The translations under genes were made by a program, and so were the position numbers. This document shows positions 17,790-20,940 of a stretch of DNA of 36,589 nucleotides, piece after piece (position 1 is the stretch's first letter; each line of letters begins with the position of its first letter). The notes under the pieces were generated by a model. That model was not told the DNA's origin. It worked only from the letters and a program-made list of their open reading frames with translations, and searched no databases. This DNA is from Promethearchaeota archaeon (GTDB lineage: Archaea > Asgardarchaeota > Lokiarchaeia > Sigyniarchaeales > SOKP01), in NCBI GenBank assembly GCA_016839585.1, contig JAEOTZ010000053.1, positions 1-36,589 of the forward strand. The letters are read 5' to 3'.

Positions 17790-19112
17790 TTATCTAAATT
17801 TTGGTAGATATTTCTTTTGCAAATCGCTCATCTCGTTAAAAATGTCTTCTGCCATTTCAAAACTCCCAACATTCGGATCAATAGCTAAGCAAGCTAATGC
17901 AAATTCTTTAGATCTTTTTAATGCAGCTTCTACACATAAATCTTGAATAGAAGCTTCAATACGAAGCAACGCAGCGATATTTTTTGGTAGTTCGCCTATT
18001 TTTACACCATGAACACCTTGTTTATTAACTTTAGCTGAAATTTCAAGGACTAAATCTTCTGGTAGATTATTTATCAATCCGTCATTTGGGAGATTTACAG
18101 CACTTTCATAGGAATTCTTATCTGTTATTATTGCTTCAATAATAGGTATAGCTCTTTCTCCAGAGGGTTCTTTAAAAAGAGGTCCAATCTTTGGTCGTTT
18201 TCCTTTTTTCAATCGTTTATAATAATGAGCGATAAGTCCATATATACTTTGATTAAATTGATCTGTATGATTAATCCAATCAATCATATCTTGAGTTTTG
18301 GTAAATTCTTCACCAAATTGAAGATATTCCCCTAAATGGTTATCTCCAACATAGGGAAAATAACCGAATCTATTATAAATCTCAAAGGTTAAAGTTGAAA
18401 ATTCAAATCTGTTTTCATTTTTCTTAAAATAATTCATGGCTTTAACATTAAAATCAAGCATTAAATCTTTTCCAGCAGCTAAATCTTCTAATCCTAATAA
18501 AAAGGCAAAGTGGTTAAGCCCTGCGACTGTCATTTTTAATTCTTCCAGCTTTTTATTAAACATTATCGGTAAATGATGATTTAGAAATCCAATTTGATGA
18601 CATAAACCGATAAATTTTAAATTTTTTGTTGCTCTTTTAATTGCTAAACATACTCTAGACATAGGATTTGAAAAGTTAATAAAAAAAGCATTTGGGCATA
18701 GTTTTTCTATATCTTTTATAATTTCAATAATTGGTGGGATAATCCTCCAAGCATGAAAGTTGCCACCCGGACCTCCACATTCTCCTAAAATCTGAGTAGA
18801 ACCATGCTTTCTGGGGATCTCATAATCCTGCCACCATAATGAAAATCTATCACCGACTTCAATCGAATTAATTATGAAATCAGCATCCTCAAAAGCTTCA
18901 GCTCTATTAGTAGTCCATTGGATATTAAATTTATTTCCTAATCTTTCATTTTCGAAAGTTAATAGCTCATAAACAATTTTCAATTTTTCTTTATTTATAT
19001 CATGAAGTACAATCGTAGAACCTACCAGAACAGTACTTAAATATAAATCACTAAACGTTGATGGACCAAATGAAGTTGATCCTGCTCCAACAAGTACAAT
19101 CTTTTTTTCCAT
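17790..19112 (-). CDS. Glycoside hydrolase family 4 (NAD+/Mn2+-dependent alpha-galactosidase/alpha-glucosidase)
   Basis: KIVLVGAGSTSF Rossmann motif, DYEIPRKHG..Q..GECGGPGG, FINFSNP, IGLCH, AGLNHF, GDNHLGEY. Confidence 0.9.
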   Translation of the reverse strand: MEKKIVLVGAGSTSFGPSTFSDLYLSTVLVGSTIVLHDINKEKLKIVYELLTFENERLGNKFNIQWTTNRAEAFEDADFIINSIEVGDRFSLWWQDYEIPRKHGSTQILGECGGPGGNFHAWRIIPPIIEIIKDIEKLCPNAFFINFSNPMSRVCLAIKRATKNLKFIGLCHQIGFLNHHLPIMFNKKLEELKMTVAGLNHFAFLLGLEDLAAGKDLMLDFNVKAMNYFKKNENRFEFSTLTFEIYNRFGYFPYVGDNHLGEYLQFGEEFTKTQDMIDWINHTDQFNQSIYGLIAHYYKRLKKGKRPKIGPLFKEPSGERAIPIIEAIITDKNSYESAVNLPNDGLINNLPEDLVLEISAKVNKQGVHGVKIGELPKNIAALLRIEASIQDLCVEAALKRSKEFALACLAIDPNVGSFEMAEDIFNEMSDLQKKYLPKFR

Positions 19113-19272
19113 AATTTTGAAGGGTTATTTTTTCAATATTTCCTTAAAATATTAACATAATTAAAGAGTTTTCAAATTTTTTAGAATTAATAATTAAGGT
19201 ATCATTGAAATCAATACTACTTTTTTGTATAATTCACGATATTGGAGAGAAATGGGAAATAAATGGGTAAAG

Positions 19273-19280
19273 TTTATAAA
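19273..19280 (+). promoter_or_regulatory. Archaeal TATA box for the structured RNA/small-ORF transcript
   Basis: TTTATAAA preceded by purine-rich GGGTAAAG (BRE-like); predicts a start site near 19303-19307, exactly where the paired region begins. Confidence 0.6.
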
Positions 19281-19303
19281 GGATTTTTCTCACAATTCTA
19301 ATA

Positions 19304-19540
19304 ATGAGCTTTTCAAATAATACTACGACATATTGGTGTAGATTACATTTAGGTGTAATAGCTGTATTCATCCGTAGTATTATTAAGAGAGAATAAATCA
19401 AATCTCTTGACCTGTTTCTTATATTTTTTATTGGTTTATTCTCTCAACATATAATAACTATGTAAAATTTATTCGAAAAAGGTCAAGCCTGATTTCATTC
19501 TCCTAGTGAAAGCTAAATCAAAAAAAAAAGGAGGTGAAAA
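19304..19540 (+). ncRNA. Candidate structured RNA / riboswitch-like 5' leader (no known family recognised)
   Basis: Stems 19316-19327/19373-19384 (12 bp perfect) and 19387-19401/19431-19445 (15 bp, one U-G); pseudoknot 19406-19418/19475-19487 (12 of 13); hairpin 19493-19499/19505-19511 with anti-SD loop CUCCU; alternative 5'-3' pairing 19307-19315/19507-19514. G-U pairs favour the + strand. Confidence 0.7.
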
Positions 19541-19733
19541 ATGGTTGGGAAATAAGTTAAACAAAAATGATCCTTATATGATACTTGACTACTATAAAGA
19601 TTGGGATTCTGATAAAGCTCCAGTCATGATGGTTTTAAATAACTTGGATGATAATCCTGGGCAAATAGAATCTGAAGATGAGAAAAAACTAGCTTATCTT
19701 TGGAACAAGTACAAATATCAAAAATCTAAATAA
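19541..19733 (+). CDS. Small hypothetical protein; RBS-led ATG frame stops after 4 codons, body continues in +1 frame
   Basis: AGGAGGTGA-AAA-ATG GTT GGG AAA TAA; the +1 frame reads (G)NKLNKNDPYMILDYYKDWDSDKAPVMMVLNNLDDNPGQIESEDEKKLAYLWNKYKYQKSK*. Alternative starts: GTG 19506 (track) or ATG 19578. Confidence 0.55.
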
Positions 19734-19734
19734 A

Positions 19735-19760
19735 TTTTTTTTTATTTACTTATTTTTTTT
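19735..19760 (+). terminator. Oligo-T terminator after the small ORF
   Basis: T9 and T8 runs directly after TAA 19733, between convergent genes. Confidence 0.5.
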
Positions 19761-20940
19761 AGTTAAGGACTTTATCTATCCTTTCTAATGCTTCTTTAAT
19801 TCTTTCTATTGGCTGTGTTAAAGCAAATCTAACAAAACCTTCTCCATATTGACCAAAACCAATCCCTGGAGTTATAATTACCCCTACATTGATCAATTTT
19901 TTAACAAAATCCATGCTATTTGTTTCTCCCTCAGGAATTTGAATCCATACATAAAAAGTTGCTTTTGGTTTATCTGTTTCCCAACCAATCTTATTTAATC
20001 CTTCAACCAGTACATCACGTCTTTTTTCATAAATTTTCATGTTTTTATCCACGATTTCTGGTTTTTTTTCTGATTTATATTCATTTAATCCTTTTATTAC
20101 TGCTTTTTGTATAAAAATTGGACACCCTGAATCAATTTGAGATTTTATTTTTCTTAATCCTTCAATAATTTCTTGATTACCCACTGCCCATCCACATCTA
20201 AATCCTGTCATATTAAATGTTTTTGATGCACTATTAATTTCAATATGATCAGGATTAATTTGCAATAGAGTAGGGGCTATATAGTCGCCAAAAGTGAATT
20301 CAGAATAAGGATTATCGTATATAATAATAAAATTATAATCTTCAGCATAATCTACAGCTTTTTTCAGATATTCTATAGGTGCTATGGCTCCAGTAGGATT
20401 ATTTGGATAATTTAAATACATCATTTTTGCTTTTTTTAGAATTTTAGTCTCTATTAATTCTAAATTTGGAAGAAATTTATTCTCTCTTGTTAATGGCATT
20501 AAATAAGGTTTTCCATCACATAGTTTTGTTGCTCCATTTGCATAAACAGGATATCCTGGATTAGGACATAACACAATATCTCCTGGATTGATAAATGCTC
20601 TTGCAATATTAGCAACTCCTTCCTTTCCTCCTAATACATTAGTAACCTCTCTATCAGCATTAAAATCTAACCCAAATCTTACCTTATACCATCTAACAAT
20701 CCCTTCTCTGAAAATCTCTTCTCCCATACTAGCAGGATAATTTTGATTTTCAGGAATTTTTACCTGATTGATCAACTCATTTATAATTAATTCCGGAGTC
20801 GTCAGATCGGGATCTCCTATTCCCAACGAAATGAAATCTATTCCTTCTTTCTTTTTCTTAGCTTTTAATTCTTCAATTGCCACGAAAATATATTTTGGTA
20901 ATCTGTTTACTCTTTCAGCATATTCTATTTTCATCTTCAA
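19759..20940 (-). CDS. dapL: PLP-dependent class I/II aminotransferase, LL-diaminopimelate aminotransferase-like
   Basis: ISLGIGDPD, GGKEG, PGYPVY, YLNYPNNPTGA, DNPYSEF, SASKTFNMTGFRCG (PLP lysine), PGIGFGQYGEGFVRFAL. Substrate is inferred. Confidence 0.75.
   Translation of the reverse strand: MKMKIEYAERVNRLPKYIFVAIEELKAKKKKEGIDFISLGIGDPDLTTPELIINELINQVKIPENQNYPASMGEEIFREGIVRWYKVRFGLDFNADREVTNVLGGKEGVANIARAFINPGDIVLCPNPGYPVYANGATKLCDGKPYLMPLTRENKFLPNLELIETKILKKAKMMYLNYPNNPTGAIAPIEYLKKAVDYAEDYNFIIIYDNPYSEFTFGDYIAPTLLQINPDHIEINSASKTFNMTGFRCGWAVGNQEIIEGLRKIKSQIDSGCPIFIQKAVIKGLNEYKSEKKPEIVDKNMKIYEKRRDVLVEGLNKIGWETDKPKATFYVWIQIPEGETNSMDFVKKLINVGVIITPGIGFGQYGEGFVRFALTQPIERIKEALERIDKVLN

Follow-up and report, generated by a model that had tools for sequence, protein, structure and literature searches.

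A structured RNA leader of about 240 nt, which precedes a small gene and is kept across one family of Lokiarchaeia (Asgard archaea), was identified in a 36,589-nt stretch of DNA from a Promethearchaeota archaeon (contig JAEOTZ010000053.1), referred to below as the window. The best reading of the element is a new RNA family, a translation-coupled regulatory leader, with a mechanism and a direction of regulation that are proposed from the sequence. The leader combines covarying folds, a short reading frame that is conserved as open, a hairpin that co-evolves with the start site of the downstream gene, and modular use before different genes. With a probability of about one half, it is a cis-acting leader of a two-cistron mRNA which takes the translating ribosome as its input. 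The first cistron would be a mini-ORF, sORF1, and the second the small gene, ORF2. The features of the locus are collected in Table 1.

Table 1. Features of the leader and its surroundings (positions in the window)
Feature	Position	Strand	Description
Direct repeat ATGGGAA-N4-ATGGG	19252-19267	+	Invariant columns in genus alignment A1; directly upstream of the TATA box
TATA box (TTTATAAA)	19273-19280	+	Conserved in A1; centre about 27 nt before ATG 19304
sORF1	19304-19396	+	30 codons, putatively leaderless; contains P1; TAA at 19394-96 in the P2 5' arm
P1 hairpin	19316-19384	+	Outer stem 19316-27/19373-84, 12 of 12 pairs; apical hairpin 19342-48/19353-59
P2 hairpin	19387-19445	+	Arms 19387-401/19431-45, 15 pairs, one of them U-G; loop holds the pseudoknot 5' arm
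Pseudoknot helix	19406-19487	+	19406-18 (P2 loop) with 19475-87, 12 of 13 pairs
P3 hairpin	19488-19549	+	19488-19504 with 19529-19549; covers Shine-Dalgarno sequence and TTG start in the window
Shine-Dalgarno sequence GGAGGTG of ORF2	19530-19536	+	Invariant in 49 genus sequences; kept in the sister genus
ORF2	19545-19733	+	62 aa, TTG start; conserved frame, profile of 48 sequences
Two oligo-T tracts	19735-43 and 19753-60	+	Read from the sequence, after ORF2

Setting, promoter and distribution of the leader

The region 19247-19640 was recovered at 66-96% identity from 48 of the 53 other species genomes of the window's genus. Its synteny is fixed, with a divergent family-4 glycosidase gene on one side and a convergent gene for an LL-diaminopimelate-type aminotransferase on the other. 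A profile search with the ORF2 protein located the locus in 36 of the 42 genomes of the sister genus and in three more genera of the same family, and both leader and synteny are retained in all of these; no convincing locus was obtained from the other families of the class. The carrier genomes are MAGs of Promethearchaeota/Promethearchaeia (Lokiarchaeia), which bears out the first-pass annotation in its guess of an Asgard RNA, and the collection of homologues that it had proposed yielded 82 aligned loci from five genera of the one family. The RNA is better kept than the protein, with 67-75% nucleotide conservation compared to 40-60% amino acid conservation for ORF2. One copy of the RNA element is present in its own genome, and the locus has neither terminal repeats nor a transposase. 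The sequencing data listed for the stretch are DNA metagenomes of marine sediment and cold seeps only and include no RNA dataset.

Two MAGs of the window's genus contained two copies of the locus each, on separate contigs. One copy per MAG was of another clade's type, which suggests mixed bins or strain mixtures rather than a true duplication. The DNA at 19113-19250, which adjoins the divergent glycosidase gene and carries the promoter of that gene, was not conserved across the genus, unlike the leader.

A covariance-model search of the whole window with Rfam 15 gave no match at the gathering thresholds, and the best sub-threshold matches within 19100-19780 had E-values of 3.2-9.3. The element had been described as one without a match to the consensus of TPP, cobalamin, lysine, SAM, fluoride, c-di-AMP, RNase P or SRP, and this description agrees with the search. 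RNase P and SRP RNA were excluded as identities, since the genome's own copies of both are located on other contigs.

A TATA-like box was found 25-37 nt 5' of the ATG in nearly all loci. In the window the box ends about 24 nt before position 19304, very close to the spacing of some 25 nt noted at the first reading. From the spacing between TATA box and ATG, the transcript is most likely leaderless, with its start at or next to ATG 19304. Directly upstream of the TATA box lies the direct repeat, which in the sister genus takes the palindrome-like form ATGGGAA-N5-6-CCCAY. It is possibly a regulator site or an extended BRE, and as a regulator site it may be common to the leader and the divergent glycosidase gene. 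The motif was absent from the related leaders of dehydrogenase and leuS genes described below. A regulon based on the repeat was considered and rejected: nine copies were counted in the genome, and no regulon is evident since the eight others lie mostly within coding regions. Archaeal RNA polymerase stops at oligo-T, and the tracts between 19735 and 19760 are likely to be the end of the transcript.

Fold and covariation of P1, P2 and the pseudoknot

A covariance model, R1, whose structure consists of P1 and P2, was built from 36 sequences, and 82 loci from five genera were aligned to it to give alignment A6, which is hence fitted to P1 and P2. P1 with its inner hairpin, P2 and the pseudoknot were all found where they had been drawn at the first reading, with the pairs listed in Table 1, and the covariation that was to be looked for in them is present. 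In A6, 88.5% of the cells were paired, compared to 46-54% when the partners were slid, and 30 of the 52 pairs had changed on both sides. Double-sided changes amounted to 236 cells, against 51-69 in the slid controls and 97 ± 8 in shuffles, a statistic that is inflated by the kinship among the sequences (none of 500 shuffles reached the observed value). Alignments made by MAFFT only agreed with the covariation picture of A6.

P1 was present in every species, with differing inner sequences. It was 95% paired in A6, eight of its eleven outer pairs had changed on both sides, and the inner helices covaried too. P2 was 98.8% paired in the 82 sequences. At one of its pairs, 50 sequences had U-G, 24 had U-A and eight had C-G; the RNA is therefore assigned to the + strand, because the conserved U-G would be an A-C mismatch on the opposite strand. 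The pseudoknot helix lies outside the model, and 10 of its 13 pairs had changed on both sides in A6 and 8 of 13 in the MAFFT alignment A2. Its cognate arms were 4.6 kcal/mol more stable together than non-cognate arms. A helix between a hairpin loop and a downstream segment, with compensatory changes, is what defines an H-type RNA pseudoknot, and this helix is one.

The + strand was predicted to fold at -54.2 kcal/mol, compared to -37.5 ± 4.0 kcal/mol for 200 dinucleotide shuffles. The resulting z of -4.2, from the comparison with shuffles that had been proposed at the outset, was obtained with RNAfold, which cannot model pseudoknots; the - strand gave a z of -3.4. On the window alone RNAfold paired the P2 5' arm not with its 3' arm but with 19490-19504. 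This alternative helix was 78% paired, without covariation. The small hairpin drawn in the pseudoknot linker (19447-51/19459-63) can be formed in the window, but it is not conserved, with 40.6% pairing in the genus and no better values than slid controls.

Two further covarying helices were observed weakly. The first, 19384-89/19404-09, is a local hairpin which would expose the sORF1 stop in its loop, and the second would join the end of the P1 3' arm (19380-84) to 19505-09, just past the anti-Shine-Dalgarno segment. Both are of low complexity (purine/pyrimidine-rich), with few independent events in the 82-sequence alignment.

The same data bear on a possible role of the locus as DNA. Long inverted repeats in a divergent promoter region, together with a conserved direct repeat ahead of the TATA box, could act as operators or be what is left of a mobile element. 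Such a DNA-level feature is highly improbable, however, as the conserved U-G pairs would turn into A-C mismatches if the opposite strand or a DNA cruciform were the folded form, and compensatory changes have occurred in three helices and a pseudoknot. A single copy per genome in fixed synteny, with no terminal repeats or transposase, also speaks against a mobile element.

The mini-ORF and the start site of ORF2

The first-pass annotation had treated the stretch as simply intergenic and non-coding. This was found to be wrong for its first 93 nt, which are a conserved small ORF. sORF1 opens at an invariant TAATG (19302-06), and its frame was open in 83 of 83 loci, compared to 0 of 83 for each of the two other frames and 11.6% for the shuffled region. 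The length varied from 20 to 32 codons in eleven length classes, and the indels were either multiples of three or compensated. In all loci the stop codon was located at the P1/P2 junction, either as a TAA within the P2 5' arm, which is the window's case, or where the P1 3' arm ends. This position is not independent evidence, since all three frames of the conserved junction nucleotides reach a stop nearby. sORF1 is thus a frame-conserved short leader ORF of the kind that characterizes leader-peptide attenuators, and such an ORF is present in the paralogous leaders as well.

The peptide, by comparison, was variable wherever the RNA is unpaired, and codon 2 alone encoded eight different residues. 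Moreover, the P1 3' arm is read in one frame in the window's clade and in a different frame in one genus clade and the sister genus. Variable unpaired codons and two reading frames over the same nucleotides suggest that the nucleotides and the act of translation, or the open frame, are selected and not the peptide. As read from these alignments, an open frame without a conserved peptide appears to be the signature of a regulatory upstream ORF. A role of the pseudoknot in frameshifting was considered and rejected: beyond the stop codon of sORF1 the -1 frame stays open in the window, but it is closed in the genus consensus.

An explanation for the open frame could also be that sORF1 is a functional micro-protein, for instance a small hydrophobic membrane peptide, with an RNA fold that serves only to keep the mRNA stable or to regulate how the peptide is translated. 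An invariably open frame, as observed, would be expected, and the peptides linked to leuS and dehydrogenase genes have a polar head followed by 10-16 hydrophobic residues, a tail which resembles a membrane anchor. We regard this explanation as quite unlikely. Besides the missing conservation of the peptide where the RNA is unpaired and the different frames in which its C-terminal half is read by clade, the peptides of the window and of most ORF2-type leaders contain no hydrophobic stretch of membrane length, and no relatives of the sORF1 peptide were found in Pfam, NCBIfam or the Atlas.

ORF2 gave no match in Pfam, NCBIfam or the Atlas either, and by profile search it was found only in this Lokiarchaeia family. 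Its AF2 model (mean pLDDT 70.6) shows two helices, a short one and then a long one at the C-terminus. The start codon lies 6-8 nt past the Shine-Dalgarno sequence. Most species start with CTG, some with TTG and a minority with ATG, and ACG is used by part of the sister genus. A strong and invariant Shine-Dalgarno sequence combined with mostly non-AUG starts fits a tightly controlled initiation of ORF2. The stretch had been said to end at a perfect ribosome binding site. GGAGGTG is indeed present, but the ATG next to it (19541) is out of frame, and the conserved start is the TTG at 19545. This ATG results from a 1-nt insertion in the window's clade and opens a 4-codon ORF that overlaps the TTG start. 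A +1 frameshift from the 4-codon ORF into ORF2 was considered and is not needed, since a 96% identical relative has ATAG in place of ATGG and an in-frame CTG or TTG is present in most species. At two loci from a further genus of the family, a distant ORF2-like gene that begins with ATG was not preceded by a recognisable leader; the ORF2-like small protein thus also occurs without the RNA.

The P3 register was 73.8% paired in the genus, compared to 42-65% for slid controls. The predicted probability that the Shine-Dalgarno sequence is unpaired was 0.01 in the window's clade and 0.2-0.8 elsewhere. A universal anti-Shine-Dalgarno switch was therefore rejected, since sequestration is strong only in the window's clade. 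RNAalifold, applied to the 3' region, returned no single consensus helix for P3. In a test that does not depend on the register, the segment 52-14 nt before the Shine-Dalgarno sequence was paired with its own or with unrelated ORF2 start regions in 83 loci. The cognate start-site duplex was at -4.17 kcal/mol relative to non-cognate ones, and 21% of the non-cognates did as well. This is very similar to the positive control, the pseudoknot arms, where the difference was 4.6 kcal/mol and 20% of the non-cognates were as good. Four negative controls gave +0.35 to -0.95 kcal/mol and 40-54%. The segment after the pseudoknot and the ORF2 start site co-evolve so as to stay complementary.

Paralogous leaders and a proposed ribosome-sensed attenuator

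R1 also identified the same architecture in places where ORF2 is absent. In one genus it was found before two acyl-CoA dehydrogenases and an unrelated 45-aa ORF (E-values of 2e-10 to 1e-3), and in four of the five genomes of a third genus weaker matches were obtained before the gene for leucyl-tRNA synthetase, leuS (1e-4 to 0.02). These paralogues have the TATA box, the 5' mini-ORF, the P1 hairpin and a P2 with compensatory arms, and the loop pairs with a downstream segment in a different sequence, for example CUCUUUCU with AGAAAGAG. P1 of the leuS class is weak (z -0.8). The own genome's leuS has no such leader, and two weak R1 matches in that genome were rejected as both lie in coding regions. 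One dehydrogenase-linked leader was flanked on each side by an acyl-CoA dehydrogenase gene, the two genes being in tandem on the same strand; from this position, it may act inside the operon and not at its start.

Counting ORF2, the element is located directly upstream of a gene, on the same strand, in four different gene contexts. This arrangement weakens the option of an independent non-coding RNA that had been left in the first-pass annotation. According to this option, a stand-alone or dual-function structured RNA of about 190 nt, working in trans or as a scaffold, would merely happen to lie upstream of ORF2. The RNA is more conserved than ORF2, which may point to a role for the RNA itself, and its folds are strong. 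In many species a short transcript could also terminate at two T5 tracts in the region of the P2 loop. These tracts are kept in ORF2-type leaders, however, and not in the paralogues. In addition, no conserved ORF2 promoter was found inside the leader, the 3' part co-evolves with the ORF2 start region, the genome holds a single copy, and the position just upstream of the gene and on the gene's strand recurs in all four contexts. A stand-alone RNA is therefore held to be unlikely. Oligo-T attenuation in the P2 loop is a minor possibility.

Use of one fold ahead of different genes is also known from riboswitches. In a riboswitch-like sensor, P1, P2 and the pseudoknot would be the aptamer for a metabolite or a protein, possibly the ORF2 product, P3 would be the expression platform, and the small ORF would be incidental or secondary. 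The compact pseudoknotted fold with its strong covariation, the near-invariant P2 arms, the conserved U-rich loop segment and the start-site hairpin downstream would all suit such a sensor, which, having no Rfam match, would be a new class. We nevertheless consider it doubtful. The invariant positions are in helices and not in junctions or loops, and they can be explained by one arm that has several partners. A frame that stays open in 83 of 83 loci despite many indels is hard to explain if translation is irrelevant, and the downstream genes have no obvious single ligand in common except branched-chain amino acids or their tRNAs. The element had been annotated as a possible ligand- or protein-sensing leader. 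A leader of the small downstream gene is still its most plausible role, but sORF1 points to the translating ribosome, and not to a ligand, as the input.

The C-terminal residues of the sORF1 peptides differ in composition between the classes of leaders. Over the last eight positions of the peptide, the combined share of Val, Leu and Ile was 0.88-1.00 in the leaders of leuS, the acyl-CoA dehydrogenases and the 45-aa ORF. Most leaders of the ORF2 type reached 0.64-0.72. The window's own class had 0.38, near the 0.31 obtained from null small ORFs of the window; in the window's copy most of the enrichment has been lost. The tail before one dehydrogenase contains VVVVDVVVV, and 11-13 of 26 residues before leuS are Leu. 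The tail codons coincide with the P1 3' arm (GUAGUAUUA), whose GUA repeats are read as Val. Since the tail codons are the P1 3' strand, structure and codon content are inseparable by sequence, and the Val/Leu-rich codon content could be a by-product of a hairpin in an AT-rich genome. Hydrophobic tails, which would be expected of the small toxin peptide in a type I toxin-antitoxin system with its overlapping antisense RNA, are present in some paralogues only.

From the features above we infer where transcription starts, that sORF1 is translated, and the switch with its direction. In the preferred reading, the ribosome-sensed leader, transcription would start at or next to ATG 19304 and yield a leaderless mRNA. 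A ribosome would translate the 30 codons of sORF1, melting P1 on the way, and on reaching the stop codon in the P2 5' arm it would melt P2, whose loop pairs with 19475-87. The segment 19488-19504 would then choose between two partners. Pairing with the ribosome binding site and start codon of ORF2 (P3) would turn ORF2 off, and pairing with the P2 5' arm would leave the ORF2 start free. The position of the ribosome and its dwell time on sORF1 would set the fold, and hence the output of ORF2. Three pairings would thus be in competition: the P2 5' arm could bind either its own 3' arm or 19490-504, and 19488-504 could bind the ORF2 start site. Such a three-way competition would explain why P2 is near-invariant whereas P1 and the pseudoknot drift freely.

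The Val, Leu and Ile codons at the end of the mini-ORF in the relatives suggest an ancestral signal, which would be the pausing of ribosomes at scarce branched-chain aminoacyl-tRNAs. The genes downstream of the leaders (leuS, acyl-CoA dehydrogenases and two unrelated small ORFs) are suggestive of a functional link, which is not clear. Tentatively, and with a smaller chance than the leader mechanism itself, the leaders may form a Lokiarchaeia "ribulon", that is, a set of leaderless attenuators in which pausing at Val, Leu and Ile codons would set the expression of leuS, acyl-CoA dehydrogenases and small proteins.

In mycobacteria, leaderless polycysteine short ORFs act as attenuators in which stalled ribosomes block structures that conceal the next gene's ribosome binding site (Canestrari et al., bioRxiv 10.1101/834739). 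By analogy, these appear to be the nearest known relatives in design. In both systems a leaderless short ORF would be the first cistron, the design is used at several loci, and the short ORF contains a run in which the codons specify a single kind of amino acid, in Lokiarchaeia in the paralogues. The run is for Cys in mycobacteria and for Val, Leu and Ile in the Lokiarchaeia paralogues, and the window's copy has no clear run. Further, the mycobacterial attenuators are bacterial and experimentally shown, whereas the Lokiarchaeia leader is archaeal and deduced from sequence. It also differs in its large and conserved three-helix pseudoknotted fold, and in that the short ORF itself is a long hairpin.

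Comparable features are seen in other regulatory leaders. Enterobacterial attenuators (ilvB/ivbL, ilvGMEDA, leu, pheST) have leader peptides with Val, Leu and Ile runs before genes that serve the same amino-acid economy, among them one for an aminoacyl-tRNA synthetase. They share with the Lokiarchaeia leaders the Val/Leu/Ile codon runs, here in the paralogues, and mutually exclusive RNA pairings, which here are candidates. They have, however, a 5' UTR with a Shine-Dalgarno sequence and a rho-independent terminator hairpin as output, and no such terminator was seen in the Lokiarchaeia leader; nor do they contain a pseudoknot. In the translational attenuation of ermC and cat, ribosome occupancy of a leader ORF remodels a downstream hairpin that hides the Shine-Dalgarno sequence or start codon. 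The Lokiarchaeia leader likewise has a leader ORF and a hairpin over the downstream start site, with a switch that would be similar. The ermC and cat switches depend on a ribosome stalled by an antibiotic through a specific nascent peptide, while the Lokiarchaeia peptide varies in sequence and the genes behind it have metabolic roles or belong to no known family. The pairing of a hairpin loop with a segment near the ribosome binding site resembles the H-type pseudoknot riboswitches preQ1-II and SAM-II, but the Lokiarchaeia RNA is much larger and contains a putative translated ORF.

Few cis-regulatory RNAs are established in archaea, and to our knowledge ribosome-mediated leader-peptide attenuation has not been shown there. 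No earlier description of it in archaea was found in the open-access literature; the leader may be the first ribosome-sensed amino-acid attenuator in this domain. The present work provides a well-defined RNA family that is backed by covariation and has a usable covariance model, together with parts that can be tested (the mini-ORF, three helices, the pseudoknot and the start-site hairpin). Branched-chain amino acids are indicated by the peptide tails of the paralogues and by the genes that follow them. Should the attenuator reading fail, Lokiarchaeia would still have a conserved pseudoknotted RNA of 190 nt that calls for an explanation. If it is true, translation-coupled folding of RNA serves metabolic sensing in the Asgard archaea, the closest prokaryotic relatives of eukaryotes, and the leader would give a handle on the rules of translation and its initiation, both leaderless and from Shine-Dalgarno-led non-AUG starts, in organisms that are hard to culture.
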